This document shows, piece by piece, positions 4,426-41,939 of a stretch of 64,000 nucleotides of DNA. The stretch is from an uncultured Armatimonadetes bacterium. Lineage in GTDB: Bacteria > Armatimonadota > UBA5829 > DTJY01. Every line of letters starts with the position of its first letter. Within the stretch, counting starts at the first letter, position 1. Location: NCBI GenBank assembly GCA_963717145.1, contig OY970325.1:4096001-4160000 (forward strand), in the 5' to 3' direction. The translations under genes and the position numbers were made by a program. The notes beneath the pieces were generated by a model that made no database searches, was not told the origin of the DNA, and saw only the letters and a program-made list of their open reading frames with translations.

Positions 4426-5082
4426 CTAGCCGTTTCTACGTCTCAGCACGAATCCCGCGAGTCCGGTGATGCCGGACACCAGGGCGAGCAAGCTGCTCGG
4501 CTCGGGGACGACTTCGATGTAGGAAGTCGAGCCGGCCGGGCCTTCGACCGCTCCAACGTTTCCACCGTTCATGTTCCATACTACGTTGAAGATCAGGCCG
4601 ACGTTATTCCAGCCTGCATCGATGCCGGACTGGAGATATGAAGTCACGTCGTGTCTCTGCCAGCCTTCGCCGACGCCATTGAGAAAGGCTATCTCGGATC
4701 CGCCGGCTTGGCTGAATCCTGCTGCTACCGCCGAGCCGGGATCTCCGCCATAGAACTGGAGCGAGGTCCCGTTGATCCCGTAGGAATAGAAGTTGAAAGA
4801 AGCGCTGTTCGGACTTAGTGTCTTGCCTGCCAGGGAGGAGATGTTGACGATCACCATTCCTCTCCCTGATTCTCTGTTCTCGCCGTTATGCCAGAACGAG
4901 ACGTTGGTACCGCCGGTGTCCGCCCAGGAGCCATACCACCCGTACCAACTGCGGCCGGCATACCCGTCACCCTCGCCGGTTGGATAGAGCCTCAGCGGCA
5001 CCGGGCTGGCGAATGCCGAGGTGGCGCAGAGCACAAGAGCCATTGCGATCAGGATGATAGCAAACTTCCGAGTTTTCTTCAT
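4426..5082 (-). CDS. PEP-CTERM sorting-domain protein
   Basis: Signal peptide from ATG 5082; C-terminal VPEPSSLLAL...LRRR. Confidence 0.92.
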   Translation of the reverse strand: MKKTRKFAIILIAMALVLCATSAFASPVPLRLYPTGEGDGYAGRSWYGWYGSWADTGGTNVSFWHNGENRESGRGMVIVNISSLAGKTLSPNSASFNFYSYGINGTSLQFYGGDPGSAVAAGFSQAGGSEIAFLNGVGEGWQRHDVTSYLQSGIDAGWNNVGLIFNVVWNMNGGNVGAVEGPAGSTSYIEVVPEPSSLLALVSGITGLAGFVLRRRNG

Positions 5083-5143: not shown

Positions 5144-5160
5144 TGCAATATCCATGCCAA
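5144..5160 (-). promoter_or_regulatory. Sigma54 -24/-12 promoter of the PEP-CTERM gene
   Basis: Minus strand TTGGCATGGATATTGCA, about 60 nt upstream of the ATG. Confidence 0.75.
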
Positions 5161-6379: not shown

Positions 6380-7828
6380 ATGCGTTTTCTATTCTTCGCA
6401 CTGCTTGCTCTCATCACCATGATCCCCGCGAGCCTGTATGCCGAGGACCTGATCGCCGGGAATCCGCCGTTCCGACGGCTCTTCCTCGATGCGATGGTGA
6501 CCGAGGAGTCTCAGGGCCTCACGCGCGTATTCCACTCCGCCGAGAAGCACCCCGGCAATCCCGTCATGCGTACCACCGAGGCGTGGGAAGGCTGGGGGCC
6601 GTATCTCTACGGCACAGTGCTGCGGGACGAGGGGCGGCTCAAGATGTGGTACTCCTGCATCGGCTCAGACAGCGGGTATACGTGCTACGCCGAGTCCACG
6701 GATGGCATCACCTGGACCAAGCCGAAACTCGGGATCGTCGACTTCAAGGGATCGACCGCGAACAACATCGTCGGCACAATGGGCCTCCCGAGCGTGATGA
6801 AGCTCGGAGACAAGCGATGGGCGATGTACTCCTGGGGCGGCGACTCGGGTGCGCAGGTCATGTTTTCCGAAGACGGTCTGCGCTGGACTCAGGGCAAGAC
6901 GAAGCTCTTCCCGACCTCCGACGTCGTCAACTTCTTCTACGACCCGTATCGGGAGCGCCATGTCTCGACCTACAAGGTCGCGAACCGCCGGCACAGGGCG
7001 ACCGGCCTCGCGGTCTCCAGCGATGGATTGGAGTGGAGCAAGCCGGTCGAGGGGCCGGTCTTCGGCGCGGATGACCTCGACCCGGACGCCTCCCAGGTCT
7101 ACGGCATGCCGGTGTTCCCGTACCAGGGCATGTATGTCGGCCTGCCCTGGATCTATCACGCGCGATGGATGAAGTATGGCGACTATGACTCGCCGAAGAA
7201 GATGTACGAGGCACAGGAAGGGAGTCCGTGCACCGTAGATGTCCAGATGACGTGGGGCTGGAACCTCATCCAGTGGAATCGAACGCCCGACCGGAAGCCG
7301 TTCATCGCCCTCGGGCCGGACGGAAGCTGGGACGACGGCATGATCTACACCGCCCGCGCGCCGGTCGTCATGGGCGACAAGCTCGGGTTCTACTACGGCG
7401 GATTCGATCAGGTCCACGATGACTACAAGGATGTCCACGGCGCGATCGGGCTGGCGACCCTCCGGCTCGATGGATTCTGCTCCATGCGCGCCGGGGTCAA
7501 GGAGGGATGGCTGATCAGCCGGCGGGAGGTCTTCCGTACCCCCAGAGTCACGATCAACGCGAAGACCGCCCCGACCGGCTTCGTCGCGGCCGAGCTGCTC
7601 GATCGGAACAACAACGTCATCCCCGGCTTTTCACGAGCCGACTGCATCCCATTCACGGGCGACTCGGTCCGAGGCACGATCGAATGGAAGACAGAATCGT
7701 TCCCGAAGAAGCTGATCGACGCCGACAAGAAGGTCCGCTTCTTCGTCAAGAACGCCGATCTCTATTCCTACCTCCCGGCGGACATCGACATGGCGAAGGA
7801 CGACGGTCGAATCTGGATGGACAAGTGA
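6380..7828 (+). CDS. Secreted five-bladed beta-propeller glycoside hydrolase-like protein (GH32/43/130-like)
   Basis: Signal peptide; K.PGNPV, Asp-box S.DG..W repeats, LATLRLDGF C-terminal motif. Confidence 0.75.
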   Translation: MRFLFFALLALITMIPASLYAEDLIAGNPPFRRLFLDAMVTEESQGLTRVFHSAEKHPGNPVMRTTEAWEGWGPYLYGTVLRDEGRLKMWYSCIGSDSGYTCYAESTDGITWTKPKLGIVDFKGSTANNIVGTMGLPSVMKLGDKRWAMYSWGGDSGAQVMFSEDGLRWTQGKTKLFPTSDVVNFFYDPYRERHVSTYKVANRRHRATGLAVSSDGLEWSKPVEGPVFGADDLDPDASQVYGMPVFPYQGMYVGLPWIYHARWMKYGDYDSPKKMYEAQEGSPCTVDVQMTWGWNLIQWNRTPDRKPFIALGPDGSWDDGMIYTARAPVVMGDKLGFYYGGFDQVHDDYKDVHGAIGLATLRLDGFCSMRAGVKEGWLISRREVFRTPRVTINAKTAPTGFVAAELLDRNNNVIPGFSRADCIPFTGDSVRGTIEWKTESFPKKLIDADKKVRFFVKNADLYSYLPADIDMAKDDGRIWMDK

Positions 7829-7841
7829 GCGGACACAACGT

Positions 7842-7891
7842 GTAGCCTAGGGCTTTATGCCCGTCGAGGATGCCCACAAGGGGTAGGCTAC
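7842..7891. repeat. GTAG-type REP-like palindrome
   Basis: gtagccta...taggctac. Confidence 0.6.
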
Positions 7892-7915
7892 GAGTATCGC
7901 CGAGGAAGGTGAAAG

Positions 7916-9496
7916 ATGACGGAACCGGTAAGCAGAAGAGGATTCCTGAAAGGTTCGCTCGCGGGAAGTGCAATCGTGGGCATGGGCGGCATATCCGCAT
8001 TCGGCGCACCGATTGAAAATGGAGGCACGAGCATGGCATCTAGGTATGACAGCCAGACACCAAAGGGCGAGATCTCGCACAGGTTGCTCTTCTTCGAGGC
8101 GCCGAACGAGGCATACGGCATCCACCATGCCTATGCGCCGGTGACGAAGGTCGAGTGCCGCGTGGACGACGGCGGGCTCGGCTGGTCGTGCATCGACTTC
8201 GGCGATCCGATCGAGATCGGCGGCACGTACCGATGTTATGGGACCGTGCGGACTCCCGACGAGAAGTTCATGGGCATCGCCCTGTGGGAATCCAATGATG
8301 CGCTCGAGTGGACGCCGGTCACCCTCGGCCAGGTCAAGCGGGACGGCAAGGAAACGAACCTCATCGAGTTCGAGAACCTGCCCGGCGACCAGACCGCGGT
8401 GTCGCTCCCGAACGTCATCCGGCTGAACGATGGCCGCATGCGGATGTACTTCTGGAAGCACCGCGACGGTCATCTGCGCTACCTGATCGCCGAGAGCGAA
8501 GACGGCCGCCGCTGGCGGGTCCTCGATGTCGACAAGCCGGCGCTGTTCCATCCCCATGACGGCGGCCTGTGGAAGCTTGCGGAGGGCCTCTCAAGACACG
8601 AAGCGCCTGAGATCAAGCTCACGCCGGAGGAATTCCTGAGACGCAAGCGGCTCTGGAGCAACGACTCGACGCATATCCACTACAATCCGCAGCTCGACCG
8701 CTTCGAATGCTACTCGGTCTGGCTCCATCCCGCGATCCCCGACCGGCGGGTCGATGTCGACAACGCACCCGGCATCCACCGCCTCATCCATCGCCGATTC
8801 AGCGCGGACGGCCTCGAATGGAGCGACGCCGAATTGATCATCATGCCGGACGACGGAGATCCGTGGGACCTGCAGTTCTACTTCCTGAGCGTCCATCGCC
8901 AGGCGGACTGGATGATCGGTCGGGTGGGATACTACCGCGTGGCCGATGGGATGCAGACGACGGACACCGACCTCTGCTTCTCCCGCGACGGCCGAAACTG
9001 GGAGCGTCCCGTGCGCGGTGGGTGGATTCCCCGCTCGAATGAGGGCCTCGATACGATGGGCATCTACGCAGCCGGCGCATTGGTCGATCGCGGCGACCGA
9101 TGGCTCACCCTCTACAGCGGGACACCCGTGCCGCACAACAACGGCAGGTATCGATCGGGCGTGATGGGAGCCACGTTTGCGAAGAACCGATTCGTCGGAC
9201 TGGAAGCCGATCGCACGCGGGGCGGGTTCATGACGGAGCCGTTCTTCCCGGCGGGAGAGACAATCCGCCTGGACGCGGACATCCGGGGCTCTCTGAGGGC
9301 TGAGTTGTGTGATGCGTTCGGCCGCAAGCTCGAAGGGTTCCATCTCATGGATTCGACGCCGATCCAGGGCGACTCCGAGGCCCACATCCTCCGATGGAAG
9401 GAAGCATCGACCGCCGACCACCGCTTCGAGTGCTTGCGCCTCCGGTTCGAGTACACCGACGGCGTCGTCTACGGCGTGGACTTCTCGGCGGGATGA
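7916..9496 (+). CDS. Tat-exported beta-propeller hydrolase-like protein, related to the upstream gene
   Basis: SRRGFLK twin-arginine motif; S.DG..W repeats; similar C-terminal AEL.D...GF...D..P..GDS. Confidence 0.75.
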   Translation: MTEPVSRRGFLKGSLAGSAIVGMGGISAFGAPIENGGTSMASRYDSQTPKGEISHRLLFFEAPNEAYGIHHAYAPVTKVECRVDDGGLGWSCIDFGDPIEIGGTYRCYGTVRTPDEKFMGIALWESNDALEWTPVTLGQVKRDGKETNLIEFENLPGDQTAVSLPNVIRLNDGRMRMYFWKHRDGHLRYLIAESEDGRRWRVLDVDKPALFHPHDGGLWKLAEGLSRHEAPEIKLTPEEFLRRKRLWSNDSTHIHYNPQLDRFECYSVWLHPAIPDRRVDVDNAPGIHRLIHRRFSADGLEWSDAELIIMPDDGDPWDLQFYFLSVHRQADWMIGRVGYYRVADGMQTTDTDLCFSRDGRNWERPVRGGWIPRSNEGLDTMGIYAAGALVDRGDRWLTLYSGTPVPHNNGRYRSGVMGATFAKNRFVGLEADRTRGGFMTEPFFPAGETIRLDADIRGSLRAELCDAFGRKLEGFHLMDSTPIQGDSEAHILRWKEASTADHRFECLRLRFEYTDGVVYGVDFSAG

Positions 9497-14227: not shown

Positions 14228-14350
14228 GAGAATGGCCTGGTTCCCGAACTGTCACCGTGAGGTGCGCGTGTCCGCCGTTGGCGGAATAGGGGCCGGGCCG
14301 AACCTTTCCGGGGGGCCGGCTTCAGGCATGAGGCCGGCCTTATTCATTTT
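14228..14350 (+). ncRNA. Candidate stand-alone structured RNA (three-way junction plus terminator)
   Basis: Extended -10 TGGTACAAT (14213-14221); stem 14234-14244/14289-14299 enclosing hairpins 14253-14264 and 14271-14285; terminator 14314-14350. Confidence 0.5.
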
Positions 14351-29737: not shown

Positions 29738-29778
29738 CCCCTAATGTTATCCGGCCCGGGCATACTCTCCTTGGGCAC

Positions 29779-29848
29779 AAGAAAAATGGCCCGCAGGGTG
29801 TTCGCCTGCGAGCCAAGTAAGTAAGGAGAAAAAGATGTCTTTTTCAAC
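29779..29848 (-). ncRNA. Sigma54-dependent sRNA candidate B
   Basis: Starts about 12 nt after the -12 box; seed ACATCTTTTTCTCCTTACTTAC, then terminator TGGCTCGCAGG..CCTGCGGGCCA-TTTTT. Confidence 0.7.
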
Positions 29849-29858
29849 TGGGGATATC

Positions 29859-29874
29859 TGCAAGAATCGTGCCA
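29859..29874 (-). promoter_or_regulatory. Sigma54 promoter
   Basis: TGGCACGATTCTTGCA, consensus -24/-12. Confidence 0.85.
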
Positions 29875-29975
29875 ATCCCGGCAATAATGCCTGCCATGTA
29901 GCATATTTCACGAACTTATCACATTCAGCACATGCGGCGTTCACGAACAAACGCCTATCAGGCGGTTTGGAGGGC

Positions 29976-30044
29976 AAAAAAAGAGAAGCCTGCGAGATTT
30001 TCCCGCAGGCTCGTAAGGAAGGAGAAATAGATGTTGTTTCCAGG
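29976..30044 (-). ncRNA. Sigma54-dependent sRNA candidate A
   Basis: Seed ACATCTATTTCTCCTTCCTTAC, then terminator AGCCTGCGGGA-AAA-TCTCGCAGGCT and U-tract. Confidence 0.7.
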
Positions 30045-30054
30045 TAGTATTACC

Positions 30055-30070
30055 TGCAAGAATCGTGCCA
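30055..30070 (-). promoter_or_regulatory. Sigma54 promoter
   Basis: TGGCACGATTCTTGCA, identical to 29859-29874. Confidence 0.85.
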
Positions 30071-30163
30071 ATTCGTGCAACAAGTCGGGGAAAGGTCAAA
30101 AAGAGTTGGAGGCAGGGGGCAATCATTGAGGCACACGTGATCGATGATGCGTTGGCAGTGCAC

Positions 30164-31036
30164 TCAAGAATCCGAGGTTCCGGCAACTGCAGAGCTCGTC
30201 ATAGTACCGGTTGATATGACGTATGGCTGGTATACATGCGTCGTCCCATCTAGAGCCAGAAAGCATCCTCTGCTGCAGACAAGAAGCGCTCGAGTGTGGA
30301 AGTATATACATCCACTTTCTGCGAAATTCTCGGCGGTCAGATATCGATTGTGCATCACTCTGTTTCGGAGAGTCCGAAGTTCGTTCAGTTTGTAATAAGC
30401 GCCCTTTCGAATAAAGACATTCCGGAACACATCTGCCCAGCAAGTCGCCTCATCTATGATCTTGGGCAAGTCTGAGAAGTCAGCGTAGAATATGTCGTGC
30501 ATCCTCTCAAAATCATGTTCAAGATCGTTCTCCTCATCAGACTTCCGATTGCCACACCTGCGCTGGATGGCAAGTAGATCTGGCTCAGCGCTGACCGTCC
30601 ACCAGTCCATGCCGTAGCATCTTGCCATAGATGCGGCGATGCGACGCCGAAGTTTGTTCTCCAGATCATGCAGGTCTGCATATGTCTTGATGGTCCGTTG
30701 GCGGCCTATCCCATCGTAGCTCAACATCCACCATGTGAAATAGGCAGACGCGGCGTATTCAATGCGAGTCTTGGCCTCTTGCATCTCCGTCTCTCCAGCT
30801 TCCTCGCCACCCTCCAGCATGATCTGGAACACGTTTGGCGATCCTCCGCTCCATCTAATCCTAACGAACACACCTTGTGCCAACCCGGATACCTCGCTCT
30901 GAGCTTGGAGGCCTGGCTGTAACTCGAAGTCTGTCAGTTCCATTAGCTCCACCATATCGGTACTGGCCTGAGCATCTGGTGAGTTATTGAGAGCGAGGTA
31001 CTCCACTTGGTTACTTGCGAGAGCAGGTGTGGTCAT
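30164..31036 (-). CDS. Protein with a C-terminal Swt1-like HEPN domain
   Basis: LENKLRRRI...G.DWW...YADFSDL..II...W..VF...LRNRVMH (Rx4H). Confidence 0.7.
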   Translation of the reverse strand: MTTPALASNQVEYLALNNSPDAQASTDMVELMELTDFELQPGLQAQSEVSGLAQGVFVRIRWSGGSPNVFQIMLEGGEEAGETEMQEAKTRIEYAASAYFTWWMLSYDGIGRQRTIKTYADLHDLENKLRRRIAASMARCYGMDWWTVSAEPDLLAIQRRCGNRKSDEENDLEHDFERMHDIFYADFSDLPKIIDEATCWADVFRNVFIRKGAYYKLNELRTLRNRVMHNRYLTAENFAESGCIYFHTRALLVCSRGCFLALDGTTHVYQPYVISTGTMTSSAVAGTSDS

Positions 31037-32962
31037 CTATCCGTCCTCCAGCACGACATCCTCAACGAGCGCCTGTATCTGACAACAAGTGTCCTGCGCT
31101 TGCTGCTCCAGTTCCCGCACGTGGTTCCGCAGATCCGCTATGCGCTGCACTAATCCCGATTGAGTTCCTAGAGGTGGAATGGGGACGCGTATCGACCGCA
31201 GACTGCTGTAGTCCAGTGCTGGCCTCGTAGAGCCCGTTGCAATCCGTTCCATCTGGGTACGGCAGAGGGCGCTGTTGAGTGCGGCTTCCAAGTATCCTGG
31301 CAGTGCCTGGTCAGGCCTGACTCTGAGTCGAACAATGTGCTGGTTGATATTTGCTTCCCGGAGTTCGGGAGGTACCACGGCCGCGGTGCCTATCCGGCCC
31401 GTAATCGTAAGAAGGACGTCGCCAGGGGTTAGCATCGATCGCGCCAAAGTGCCCGTATGAGTTCGCCTATCAATATATAACACATCAGCTAGATCGATCA
31501 TGCCTTCCTGTATGTTCTGAATGCGTAGGAGAGGCACACCTGCCTCAGCGTTCACATACGCCTCTCCCTTTGCTGCGGGAGTTGCACCCCCTGATATGCT
31601 CTCTACAATCTCGCCAAGCGTACGCACCGGGTACTTGCTTTGGCCCAGTCTAACGTCTATGGAGATGCTGAAAGATGGCTTATGGAAAAATGGATCCATC
31701 CGCAGCGTAAGTCTGCCTTCGTCTGCCATATAGCAAATAGGTTCAGCTTCATTAGATGCGGGTAGCCCTTGCGCGGAAGCAGAGAATAGAGTGGCCACCA
31801 CAGGAAGGGAATCCTCGTCCACTCTTCCGGTCGCGTCGTAGCCCACATGGGAAGGCAAGGCCATGAATGTCATCCCCATGCTATCATCATGCGGCTGTCT
31901 ACGTTGTAGTACCACCAAGCTGGCCTTTACACCTATGCCTGCTGGGGCAAAAGTGTGGGAAGGTAGTGAGATGACTGCCAGGACATGGCACCTGTCTTGT
32001 ATGAACTGTCTCACATACTGCAGTGAAACTGTTGTCAATACAGAGTCGGGCAACACCAAGGCAAGCCGACCAGGTCTGCCGCCGGCCTTAAGAAGCTCGA
32101 TACATCGCTCCAAGAACAGGAGTTCGCTCTTCTGAGCACGTCGGATGGATCCCCTGGACCCCAGATCGAATTGCTCGAGTGTTTCCGGCTCAGAGACGAT
32201 ACCCCCAAATGGGGGATTTGTGGCAACTACGTCGCATGAAGCGGGTGTCAGCCGCGACACGGCGGTGAGGGTCGGCCAAGCGGATAGGGCATTTGCGCAA
32301 AAAACGTTGGAGTGCCCGTCTCCATGTAGCACCATGGTTACCATCGCCAAGTGCGCCAATCGCTCGTTTAGCTCGACTCCCACCAGGTGCTGGGAAGCAT
32401 ACTGAGCTACATTCAGATCTGGGTTGCGCTGGGATACGTAATTCAAGCCGTAGAGAAGGAAACCGCCACTGCCACACGCAGGGTCCGCGAGGACATCATC
32501 GGGTCCAGGGTTCAATATCGTGATGGCCAGTTGAACTATTGGCCTTGGCGTAAGGTACTGACCGAGCTCAGCCTTAAAAACATCTCCAAGGAAGGCTTCA
32601 AAAGCTCTTCCGGGCGAGTCCAAATCCGATTCCACCAAAGACAAGTCCTGGAGTTGTTCGACTACGTTAGATACGATCTGCTCGGATACTGCCAGAGGTT
32701 TGTTGAACACTCCAGGATATGCATTGCAGGCTTGGTCATACACCTCCAGGACTCGAACGGCTGTGTCGTGAGCCGTCTCGCCGTTTTGCCTCCTGAACTC
32801 CCCTTTCCCCTGCACCTCATCGTATACCTTGGCAAAAAGCAATTTGGAGAACTCATCAAACGCTGTGACAGGATCACGCCGTCCACTCTCCCAGAGCATC
32901 TTGTGTGAGTTCGCGAATCGCTCCTTGAGTTGTGCCAGTGCAACCTTGTGCGGTCGGTTCAT
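31037..32962 (-). CDS. N6-adenine DNA methyltransferase fused to one target-recognition (HsdS-like) domain
   Basis: GQYLTPR, DPACGSGGFL, NPPFG; C-terminal GGATP...GDVL....GRIG...NQHI...IPPL..Q; start uncertain. Confidence 0.9.
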   Translation of the reverse strand: MNRPHKVALAQLKERFANSHKMLWESGRRDPVTAFDEFSKLLFAKVYDEVQGKGEFRRQNGETAHDTAVRVLEVYDQACNAYPGVFNKPLAVSEQIVSNVVEQLQDLSLVESDLDSPGRAFEAFLGDVFKAELGQYLTPRPIVQLAITILNPGPDDVLADPACGSGGFLLYGLNYVSQRNPDLNVAQYASQHLVGVELNERLAHLAMVTMVLHGDGHSNVFCANALSAWPTLTAVSRLTPASCDVVATNPPFGGIVSEPETLEQFDLGSRGSIRRAQKSELLFLERCIELLKAGGRPGRLALVLPDSVLTTVSLQYVRQFIQDRCHVLAVISLPSHTFAPAGIGVKASLVVLQRRQPHDDSMGMTFMALPSHVGYDATGRVDEDSLPVVATLFSASAQGLPASNEAEPICYMADEGRLTLRMDPFFHKPSFSISIDVRLGQSKYPVRTLGEIVESISGGATPAAKGEAYVNAEAGVPLLRIQNIQEGMIDLADVLYIDRRTHTGTLARSMLTPGDVLLTITGRIGTAAVVPPELREANINQHIVRLRVRPDQALPGYLEAALNSALCRTQMERIATGSTRPALDYSSLRSIRVPIPPLGTQSGLVQRIADLRNHVRELEQQAQDTCCQIQALVEDVVLEDG

Positions 32963-33071
32963 CTTGTCCGCTGCGCTTTCTGTGCTAGTCTTGCCATCAT
33001 GAGAACAGAGCCGTTCATCACATGCGTTCGGCAACCATACGCAATCTTCCTTCCGAATCCGTTTTCAAACC

Positions 33072-40673: not shown

Positions 40674-41939
40674 CTACTCCGGCAACTTGGATCCCTTGGT
40701 TTCAGGGACGAACCAGATCAGGACCAGGCCGATCACATAGACAAAAGCCATCGTAGTGCCCGCGCGCTCGAACGAGCCGCCGAAGACCTTACTGAGTTGC
40801 CCGAATCCCATGAGGATCGCCGCCGCCGCTACGACTCGCCCGATGTTGAACGAGATACCCTCGCCGGTCGAGCGAATGCGCGTCGGGAACAGCTCGGGCA
40901 GATAGAGTGGCAGCCACCCGAAGAAGCTGGTCGTGAAGACTCCCGCGATCGCGGCCAGAACGAGCAGTCGCAGGCTGTATCCATCGGTGAACTGGAAGAC
41001 GAGGATCGCCGAGGCAAGGCTGGTGAGGCAGAAGATCGCGTAAGACCACCTGCGCCCAAACCAGTCGGCCGCCGGGCCGCCGAGGAATGACCCGGCGATC
41101 TGCCCGAATGCCATCCACATCGCTGCGACCGCCCCCGCCGCCAGTTTCTCCTTGATTGCATCCGGAGGGAACATGTTCTGCACCCAGGTCGGGATAAGCT
41201 GGAAGACGCCCCAAGTACCGATCACAGCAACCGATGACAGCAGACAGGCCATGATCATATTCCGCCGAAGAGCGGGTTCGAGAAGCTGCTTCAGGTCGGG
41301 CCGCTCACCCCGCTCACGCGCCTGTACCCACTTCGCGGGCTCCTTGATACAGCATCGGATCGGGAAGGAGAGGAGGGCCGGAACGAGCCCGATGCAAAAG
41401 ATGAGACGCCAGCCGAGGTGATTGAAATTGAGATTGACGAGCGAGCTGATGAGAAATCCGACGTTTGCCGAGCTGCCGAGGAGTCCTGCCAGGAGCGGGC
41501 GTTTCGCATTCGGCCAAGTCTCCATCACCAGTGCGACCCCGAGTCCCCACTCGCCGCCAAGACCCATCGCGCCGATGAACCGGCAGATGCCGAACTGCCA
41601 GGCGGTCTGGGATAGCGCGCTCAGTCCCGTGAAGACCGAGTACAGAATGACGGTGATGATCATCGTCTTCACGCGGCCGATTTTGTCACCGAGTCGCCCG
41701 AAGATGAACCCGCCGGCCGATGCTCCGAGCAGGAAGAGGGCGAACATGTATCCCGCATACTGGGTGATCATCCCCTTGTCAGTGGTGTGCAGGAGATCTC
41801 TCAGCGCCGGCTGTGCCAGTACGGAGTAGAGACCCATCTCCATGCCATCGAACATCCATCCCAGCCACGCCACAATCAGGATCAGCCAGAGAGTGCCGGT
41901 ACTGGTCCGCTCAGCCTTGTCAACCGCCATATCGCTCAT
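40674..41939 (-). CDS. MFS transporter
   Basis: GRLGDKIGR, GLGGEW, PELFPTRIRSTG. Confidence 0.93.
   Translation of the reverse strand: MSDMAVDKAERTSTGTLWLILIVAWLGWMFDGMEMGLYSVLAQPALRDLLHTTDKGMITQYAGYMFALFLLGASAGGFIFGRLGDKIGRVKTMIITVILYSVFTGLSALSQTAWQFGICRFIGAMGLGGEWGLGVALVMETWPNAKRPLLAGLLGSSANVGFLISSLVNLNFNHLGWRLIFCIGLVPALLSFPIRCCIKEPAKWVQARERGERPDLKQLLEPALRRNMIMACLLSSVAVIGTWGVFQLIPTWVQNMFPPDAIKEKLAAGAVAAMWMAFGQIAGSFLGGPAADWFGRRWSYAIFCLTSLASAILVFQFTDGYSLRLLVLAAIAGVFTTSFFGWLPLYLPELFPTRIRSTGEGISFNIGRVVAAAAILMGFGQLSKVFGGSFERAGTTMAFVYVIGLVLIWFVPETKGSKLPE

Follow-up and report, generated by a model that had tools for sequence, protein, structure and literature searches.

Introduction

The Qrr RNAs of Vibrio, whose genes depend on LuxO, an activator of the NtrC type, act together with Hfq on the 5' regions of mRNAs, and they have a conserved pairing region, a Rho-independent terminator and a multi-stem structure. 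Five Qrr homologues that depend on LuxO and sigma-54 are described in the accessible parts of two sources (bioRxiv 10.1101/2021.07.01.450815; PMC3730234). In this paper we analyse two short tandem units, at positions 29,779 to 30,070 of a 64,000-nucleotide stretch of DNA from an uncultured Armatimonadetes bacterium (GenBank assembly GCA_963717145.1, contig OY970325.1, positions 4,096,001 to 4,160,000; this whole stretch is called the window below). A first interpretation made from the letters of the DNA (the sequence-only reading) had proposed that these units are paralogous genes for small RNAs (sRNAs), each with its own sigma-54 promoter and with a common seed directed against the Shine-Dalgarno (SD) sequence. 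Of the systems compared here Qrr is the closest in logic, as there too several siblings with their own sigma-54 promoters have a common seed. The likeness is one of mechanism and not of homology. The Qrr model (RF00378) gave no match on the window, neither at its gathering score nor at E-values up to 10, and the two systems differ in phylum. Our units furthermore have a single hairpin, a seed complementary to both SD and AUG, and no conserved activator site that could be found in 54 upstream regions.

MmgR of the alpha-rhizobia (RF00519, suhB/alpha-r8), which is under nitrogen/NtrC control, is also a short RNA, with a single-stranded anti-SD tract resembling UUUCCUCCCU ahead of its terminator. 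Among the Rfam matches of unit B that stay below threshold it ranks first (21.8 bits, where the gathering score is 41), and unit A has no match to it. This resemblance is limited to the layout, since the phylum and the flanking sequence differ. The Pxr RNA of the myxobacteria likewise has a sigma-54 promoter. Its genes are duplicated, it controls lifestyle transitions and it folds into three stem-loops, as far as the partly available literature describes it. The duplicated genes are what it has in common with our units; the three stem-loops set it apart, and there is no similarity at the level of Rfam.

Sigma-54 promoters are also known from genes of the PEP-CTERM proteins. In Proteobacteria these genes are mostly found in single-gene operons, and 99 of 167 were preceded by a -24/-12 sigma-54 motif; in the sections of that study which we draw on, the DNA motifs were seen only in Proteobacteria and no RNA component is described (Haft et al. 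2006, PMC1569441). The PrsK/PrsR/PrsT system resembles the genome studied here in its sigma-54 motifs before PEP-CTERM genes, and an exosortase is present here as well. It differs in that no activator of this genome reaches the PrsR equivalog, a search upstream of the sRNA genes yielded no 'motif 1', and the sRNAs would be a second output. Finally, CT-rich tracts have been tied to sigma-54 promoters and proposed to pair with the ribosome-binding site (RBS) (Levy et al., bioRxiv 10.1101/086108). These insulators, as the available text presents them, are motifs of 3-5 nucleotides (nt) that act in cis within 25 base pairs (bp) of the SD, whereas here a tract of 22 nt belongs to a separately terminated multi-copy RNA that lies far from any one gene.

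Results

Anatomy of the two units

The two units, which we call A and B, are composed of the following parts:

30055..30070, minus strand: sigma-54 promoter of unit A, TGGCAC-N5-TTGCA
29976..30044, minus strand: predicted sRNA A, about 69 nt; +1 placed by the promoter spacing, 3' end within the T run
30013..30034, minus strand: seed A, ACATCTATTTCTCCTTCCTTAC; predicted to be single-stranded, complement of SD, spacer and AUG
29976..30012, minus strand: intrinsic terminator A; 12-bp stem, 3-nt loop, tail CTCTTTTTTT
29952..29964, minus strand: small extra hairpin with a T-rich tail between the units, from the terminator scan; possibly a back-up terminator
29859..29874, minus strand: sigma-54 promoter of unit B, same sequence as that of unit A
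29779..29848, minus strand: predicted sRNA B, about 67-70 nt; placed by promoter spacing, fold and terminator scan
29817..29838, minus strand: seed B, ACATCTTTTTCTCCTTACTTAC; CU-rich tract
29777..29815, minus strand: intrinsic terminator B; 11-bp stem, 7-nt loop, tail TTTTTCTTGT

The promoter 16-mer TGGCACGATTCTTGCA is found at 30070-30055 and at 29874-29859 in identical copies. As the sequence-only reading had stated, both are consensus sigma-54 promoters, and we find that they are the only exact matches to TGGCACGNNNNTTGCW (TGGCACG-N4-TTGCW) in the window. A single further site, at 5159-5144, has one mismatch, and shuffled windows contained 0.39 matches on average when up to one mismatch was permitted. 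Both promoters show GG at -24, GC at -12 and the canonical spacing TGGCAC-N5-TTGC. About 20 nt downstream of each promoter the CU-rich seed of 22 nt starts, and it is followed by a GC-rich hairpin stem (30012-29986 in unit A, 29815-29787 in unit B) and a run of T. A terminator scan of the region recovered both unit terminators, and no sigma-70-type promoter was found there. If the usual spacing of sigma-54 promoters holds, transcription would start near 30044 and 29848, in agreement with the positions proposed before, and would yield RNAs of about 67-70 nt.

Units A and B are similar in promoter and seed and dissimilar in their stems and upstream DNA. The predicted RNA of unit A folds with -21.5 kcal/mol (z-score -3.8) and that of unit B with -26.2 kcal/mol (z-score -5.9), both into an open 5' region and one strong hairpin. 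The earlier description of units of about 70 nt, made of a CU-rich tract and a terminator whose stem differs between the copies and still pairs, is therefore borne out, also by the covariation of the stem within the family that is described below.

Two observations concern the 5' end of the units. In unit B alone, the 5' GAAAAAG can pair with CUUUUUC within the seed (minimum free energy structure, 29829-29845, minus strand), and this predicted pairing would partly mask the seed. An inverted repeat CAGGTA-N4-TACCTG at 30041-30056 spans the -12 element and the predicted start, and is also found in many units of our family f1. Both of its arms change between genomes, for example to AGTA..TGCT or GGCA..TACC in short-type units. 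The repeat could be a site for a protein or, should transcription begin further upstream, form a hairpin at the 5' end.

Distribution and conservation of the family

The host genome is a single contig of 5.37 Mb with 60.6 % G+C. For the comparison with other genomes we searched for the pattern promoter-N(18-34)-TTCTCCTT and used the reversed pattern as control. The pattern is present in seven of the 11 genomes of the host's own family, the host included (reversed control 0). In the phylum it was found in 37 of 401 genomes, 35 of which belong to one class with 53 genomes, and the reversed control gave two hits. The only two matches among the 348 phylum genomes outside this class come without seed flanks or a terminator and look like chance. 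Because 35 of 53 genomes match in the class, against 2 of 348 elsewhere and two hits in 401 genomes for the reversed control, the promoter and seed units are not a product of chance. Within the class, the matches are distributed over five families: six of ten genomes in f1 plus the host genome, 5/6 in f2, 16/28 in f3, 6/6 in f4 and 1/2 in f5, all of which are counts from related genomes and paralogues and hence not independent. The seed is thus conserved in related genomes, as the sequence-only reading would have it.

In the scan of all bacteria (one genome per species), which matched at least 119 stretches, full units made up 19 of the 80 titled matches listed. Their titles are Armatimonadota in 15 cases and 'uncultured bacterium' in four; the other 61 listed are lone matches in unrelated sequence.

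The further copies of promoter, seed and terminator which had been suggested for the host genome do exist. A looser pattern of promoter and core found two of them in tandem, at C1:3764492 and C1:3764905. The seed searched by itself with one mismatch found just the two window copies and three unrelated sites. With the covariance model R1, which represents the short type, exactly four copies are found in the host genome, with 62.9 bits (E 4e-10) for sRNA A and 60.4 bits (E 1.4e-9) for sRNA B. R1 also matches seven of ten family genomes, with 2-4 copies in each of these. A fifth host copy at C1:4341232 (plus strand; L210) is divergent and longer, with the seed AACATCTCTTTCTCCAATCTTACC, and its extra structured 3' part is shared by two relatives, G006 and G002 (L008, L018).

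A stricter promoter filter gave 60 units, four of which were later judged to be chance, so that 56 units in 43 loci were accepted. Beyond the letters of the searched pattern, they share the consensus AAACATCTTTTTCTCCTTCCTTA. In 50 of the 56 units the seed ends 35-39 nt from the promoter, and 11 of the 43 loci hold tandem units, commonly in arrays of 2-3. The terminator stem shows compensatory changes in six of nine pairs for the short type (17 units) and in five of nine pairs for the long type (20 units), and the seed is unpaired in both consensus structures. The long type is found in the sister families f2 and f3, whose longer RNAs carry AAGTGTTGTGG, which hardly varies, together with a second hairpin. 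As MAFFT and RNAalifold left this middle hairpin unaligned, its covariation was judged by eye only and is not counted as evidence. The RNAs of family f4 have their own distinct 3' extension. All elements of the unit, from the promoter and its distance to the seed to the seed itself and the covarying terminator, have been kept across the five families, and the copies were duplicated independently.

Two side observations concern single loci. In the relative G002 (C35, about 40886-40980; L004/L137) a third unit lies among tandem units and is seen through the seed and the covariance model only. A cyclic di-GMP (c-di-GMP-I) riboswitch is found 100-160 nt from the sRNA gene in three f3 genomes (L036 1792-1885, L039 1213-1307, L044 1712-1802). 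In L039 and L044 this riboswitch is followed by an ORF (open reading frame) that is FlgM-like in our own reading of the protein sequence and by a parA-type gene.

Searches for known families

Rfam 15 contains no family that reaches its gathering score on the units in the window, where RF02968 is the sole match. On 20 related loci, including the variant types, Rfam gave no match on the units either. When E-values up to 10 are admitted, the only results are sub-threshold look-alikes (ncr982, trpB, mmgR, NmsRb), which are driven by the CU tract and the terminator. Literature searches on small RNAs in Armatimonadota, and on PEP-CTERM, sigma-54 and sRNAs in combination, covered the accessible article text; the first found nothing on such RNAs and the second, among the papers listed, no work that joins the three. 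We conclude that the units most probably represent a new sRNA family, as had been suspected, with no regulatory RNA for Armatimonadota found in Rfam 15 or the searched literature. A link of sRNAs to the exosortase system is, in the same literature, so far unreported.

Sigma-54, Hfq and activators

The proteins that such RNAs would need had been named as a check, and they are encoded in the host genome. Two rpoN loci, with 321.5 and 291.6 bits, pass the TIGR02395 cut-off, and there is one copy of hfq at C1:1354913-1355095 (89 bits), a gene present in 51 of the 53 class genomes. In the phylum rpoN was found in 151 of 201 sampled genomes. With rpoN this widespread, the RNA family is not a mere marker of rpoN. 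The unit is absent from all three class genomes without rpoN among those sampled (G001, G124, G169). These represent two independent lineages, so the association between lacking rpoN and lacking the RNA is modest.

Only three strong enhancer-binding proteins (PF00158) were detected, encoded at C1:3047972-3049174, 7726-9342 and 242734-244134, each with a REC domain and an AAA+ domain. One of them, of 400 aa, stops directly after the AAA+ domain and has no helix-turn-helix (HTH). All three activators fall short of every NCBIfam equivalog cut-off. The PrsR equivalog TIGR02915 requires 502.6 bits, and they score 401.2, 400.1 and 407.3 bits.

The predicted sigma-54 regulon

The 16-mer type TGGCACGNNTCTTGCA is found 17 times in the host genome (reversed control 0) and 18, 17, 11, 8, 3, 1 and 1 times in seven relatives of its family. 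It is found 0 times in G001, G005 and G010, the same three in which the RNA is absent. With the wider motif TGGCA[CT]-N5-TTGC[AT] the host genome has 35 sites. Twelve of these lie just upstream of 11 PEP-CTERM genes, with one further gene doubtful. Another eight drive ORF-less CU-rich units, five of them of the family described here, two of a second type and one of a third. Four sites have a different -12 flank and cluster beside the second rpoN. The single one-mismatch promoter of the window has its place in the same inferred regulon:

5144..5159, minus strand: sigma-54-type promoter TGGCATGGATATTGCA, 77 nt upstream of a PEP-CTERM gene
4426..5082, minus strand: PEP-CTERM gene, 218 aa, driven by the promoter at 5159-5144; PF07589 22.3 bits against a cut-off of 20.7

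The host genome has about 49 ORFs with a PEP-CTERM-like end and one exosortase gene (187 bits). PF07589 was above its cut-off in seven of eight proteins tested, and the eighth (L216, G393) has an FGE-sulfatase domain only. In the relatives, eight of 20 sampled promoter sites precede PEP-CTERM genes, five by the motif rule and three by eye. For the sites in the host genome, the ends of four ORFs were likewise judged by eye.

The second type of ORF-less unit is found at C1:1523043 (plus strand) and C1:3591340 (minus strand; L211, L212), with the CU-rich tract GAGTTTTCTTCTTCTTTACCTTTCGTGGCAA and a close variant of it and without an Rfam match; the pair is possibly a second family of sibling sRNAs. 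The third type, at C1:2151822 (plus strand), has the tract ACTCTACTCCTTCCA.CCTTGCG and is conserved in a relative (L233, G002:C2:123565). The four sites with the different -12 flank, ..AAATTGCT, are found at C1:244080-269485, beside the second rpoN (C1:245048-246361) and the third activator (C1:242734-244134). Perhaps each of the two rpoN paralogues recognises its own kind of promoter.

Candidate targets

In the host genome 23 sites match AAGGAGAAAAAGATG with at most two mismatches. Two of them are the units themselves, and 17 of the remaining sites head ORFs of at least 95 codons, most of which encode signal-peptide proteins. To rank start regions we used an anchored score, for which the AUG is aligned and complementarity to the 21-nt seed is counted without gaps, over 12,868 candidate start regions, one per ORF. 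Scores of at least 15 are reached by 10 of 44 PEP-CTERM starts against 82 of 12,824 others (Fisher 4e-13), and by 10 of 43 against 50 of 5,438 among ORFs of at least 150 codons. Seed-only duplexes have medians of -13.6 and -13.35 kcal/mol at PEP-CTERM starts and of -10.3 and -9.5 kcal/mol at the starts of 2,500 other long ORFs. Energies of -18 kcal/mol or lower are found at 10-11 of the 44 PEP-CTERM starts and at 41-67 of the 2,500 others. The anchored score and the seed-only energies replaced an RNAduplex ranking, the top of which was noise from spurious ORFs and G-U-rich pairings. When the PEP-CTERM genes are divided by promoter, scores of at least 14 are found for none of the eight with a sigma-54 promoter and for 15 of the 36 without (p 0.02). 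Among the predicted targets are the genes that start at C1:4376859, 98801, 163311, 4052283 and 1021586.

In the other genomes we inspected all 19 perfect 15-nt complements of the seed beyond the known units. Ten are sRNA-like units with divergent promoters (one by rule, nine by eye), one is ambiguous and eight head genes, among which there are four PEP-CTERM genes (two being orthologues in one genus) and three genes for other secreted or membrane proteins. The long-type RNAs of the sister families add the tract AAGUGUUGUGG, the complement of CCACAACACTT. In the host genome CCACAACACTT stands directly 5' of the SD in five tandem PEP-CTERM/FGE-sulfatase genes, and the f3 genome G393 has it there in two FGE-sulfatase genes. 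The predicted extended pairing with AAGUGUUGUGG spans about 25-30 nt in those genomes.

Discussion

How the family might work

Hfq-binding sRNAs are usually laid out like the RNAs predicted here, with an open 5' seed and, behind it, a terminator that ends in a U tail. We favour the reading that the units encode paralogous, trans-acting sRNAs of about 70 nt which are transcribed by sigma-54 polymerase and mask start regions, with PEP-CTERM mRNAs as the likeliest targets, and as a whole we think it somewhat better than even. Its parts deserve different degrees of confidence. That the units are real sigma-54-dependent sRNA genes is highly probable. That the RNAs act by masking start regions seems to us somewhat more likely than not, and the proposal that PEP-CTERM mRNAs are the main targets is tentative.

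In the proposed mechanism, sigma-54 polymerase would transcribe both units when an enhancer-binding protein is active, and they would otherwise be silent. The signal to the activator would lead to firing at about 30 sigma-54 promoters. From part of these promoters PEP-CTERM surface proteins would be made directly, and from others the sRNAs, with their unstructured CU-rich 5' seed and the terminator hairpin and U tail behind it. Hfq would probably grip the RNA by this tail. The seed could then pair with the SD, the A-rich spacer and the AUG, so that the whole initiation region of a target mRNA would be covered. This would block ribosome binding, and the mRNA would probably decay faster. The likeliest targets would be the mRNAs of those PEP-CTERM (exosortase-sorted) proteins which are not under sigma-54 control. 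A single signal could in this way turn one set of surface proteins on and another set off.

Several points weigh against this reading. The transcripts, their ends and their dependence on sigma-54 are all predictions from DNA sequence, and 18 of the 53 class genomes have no pattern match, although some of them hold divergent copies. In the 54 upstream regions neither a conserved palindrome nor a conserved k-mer was found, apart from the traces that adjacent units in tandem leave there. Nor do the promoters tie the sRNAs to one activator, since their spacer is the genome-wide consensus, and GATTC and its close variants are not special to sRNA promoters. The target prediction is weak in several respects. 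Any start region that is strong and rich in purines will pair with the CU-rich seed, and ten shuffled seeds also favour PEP-CTERM starts, with smaller gaps of 0.55-2.75 kcal/mol, so that part of the enrichment is due to purine richness or composition. In the RNAduplex ranking of 29,798 candidate start sites the energy distribution is the same for reversed seeds. The gene starts behind the counts come from crude ORF rules instead of a gene caller, and the PEP-CTERM paralogues are recent duplicates and not independent counts. Moreover, the short RNAs of the window are without AAGUGUUGUGG, the source of the most striking complementarity in the sister families, so for them only the pairing from SD to AUG applies.

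Other explanations

The explanation that competes most seriously accepts the RNAs as real and sigma-54-dependent and gives them another mode of action, as general anti-SD RNAs, as regulators of targets other than PEP-CTERM mRNAs, or as decoys for a CU- or U-binding protein such as Hfq. We consider it unlikely, at odds of the order that still call for attention. The CUCCUU core can pair with almost any strong SD, the same genome has several other sigma-54-driven CU-rich units with different sequences, and both the equal global duplex energies of true and reversed seeds and the weak PEP-CTERM bias of shuffled seeds fit this explanation as well. But the conservation extends well beyond the SD complement, to CAU and the U run on one side and to CCUUA, and in sister families AAGUGUUGUGG, on the other, which argues for specific partners. 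The anchored enrichment of PEP-CTERM starts is also large and recurs in other genomes, and no GGA-type CsrA sites are found in the sequence of the two units. An action in cis is improbable. The units might be a leader or attenuator of the PHP-domain gene at 29737-28934, on the same strand and only about 40 nt past the end of unit B, or a CT-rich insulator that masks its RBS, and short CT-rich anti-SD motifs are indeed described, in the accessible part of the source, as enriched in E. coli sigma-54 promoters and as silencing the downstream gene (bioRxiv 10.1101/086108). Yet what lies downstream of unit A is unit B and no gene, tandem arrays are common, the downstream genes vary among loci and genomes, and each unit is closed by a strong terminator. 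The insulators of that source, as far as its available text goes, act at up to 25 bp from the silenced SD, whereas here about 95 nt and one terminator separate the seed from the PHP start.

It is harder still to believe that the promoter-like sites are unused and the units silent relics or non-transcribed repeats, a case to which we attach a very small probability. Relics would hardly retain promoter, seed, the distance between the two and a covarying terminator across five families, with copies that were duplicated independently and with units absent from the three class genomes where rpoN was not found. Least credible of all is that the conserved tract is the RBS and start codon of small protein genes on the plus strand (32 and 70 codons here), which would read through the apparent promoter. 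The reverse complement of the seed, AAGGAGAAA(A/T)AGATG, does look like a textbook RBS with a start codon; plus-strand ORFs at 30031-30129 and 29835-30047 start exactly at the seed complements, and an ATG is found at this position in 41 of the 60 units of the stricter filter. On the other hand, the start codon is missing in nine of these units (the four later judged chance are among the 60), and the supposed ORFs are anywhere between 3 and 113 codons long. On the plus strand the conserved promoter falls into at least three different frames, nothing past it is conserved between the two window copies, and the hairpin with its T run is a terminator for the minus strand only. As neither frame nor length is conserved on the plus strand, the ATG complement is part of an antisense seed and not a used start codon. 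The earlier statement that the units are free of ORFs hence needs rewording: ORFs of 32 and 70 codons do start at the seed complements on the other strand, and the comparative data show them to be non-coding; no credible ORF is present.

Origin, activator and significance

Returning to start-region masking by sigma-54-dependent sRNAs, a more elaborate version is conceivable in which the family is the post-transcriptional arm of a sigma-54 switch of the surface coat, run through 2-5 sibling sRNAs, maybe with an origin by antisense capture and maybe with the HTH-less activator. We regard this version as possible and rather doubtful. The body of the long-type RNA reads nearly as the reverse complement of a PEP-CTERM/FGE-sulfatase 5' untranslated region, from the start codon through the SD and back to CCACAACAC. 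The sRNA genes may thus have arisen from antisense capture of the 5' end of such a gene. The activator may be the protein without a DNA-binding domain; if so, this would be why upstream binding sites are not conserved. Activation from solution by the HTH-less activator is consistent with the failure to find a conserved upstream site, and is no more than a guess.

The family is class-wide, multi-copy and recognisable by sequence, and can serve as an entry point for RNA biology in a phylum that is known mostly from metagenomes. It joins two poorly understood subjects, the sigma-54 regulon of these bacteria and the PEP-CTERM/exosortase system; the discoverers of the latter, in the available part of their paper, did not settle how it is regulated outside Proteobacteria (PMC1569441). 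If the predicted targets are true, the circuit would be a mixed transcriptional and post-transcriptional one that swaps sets of surface proteins, and might be a case of an sRNA born from the 5' end of its own target. If only the basic reading holds, the units are one more sigma-54-dependent family of sibling sRNAs, which would be useful and unsurprising.

Other features of the window

Directly upstream of unit A, at 30164-33034 on the minus strand, we find a HEPN_Swt1 protein gene, together with an N6-methylase fused to a specificity domain. The one Rfam match of the window, a DUF3800-IX RNA (RF02968), is located at 14234-14303 on the plus strand and scores 58 bits against a gathering score of 36.8.

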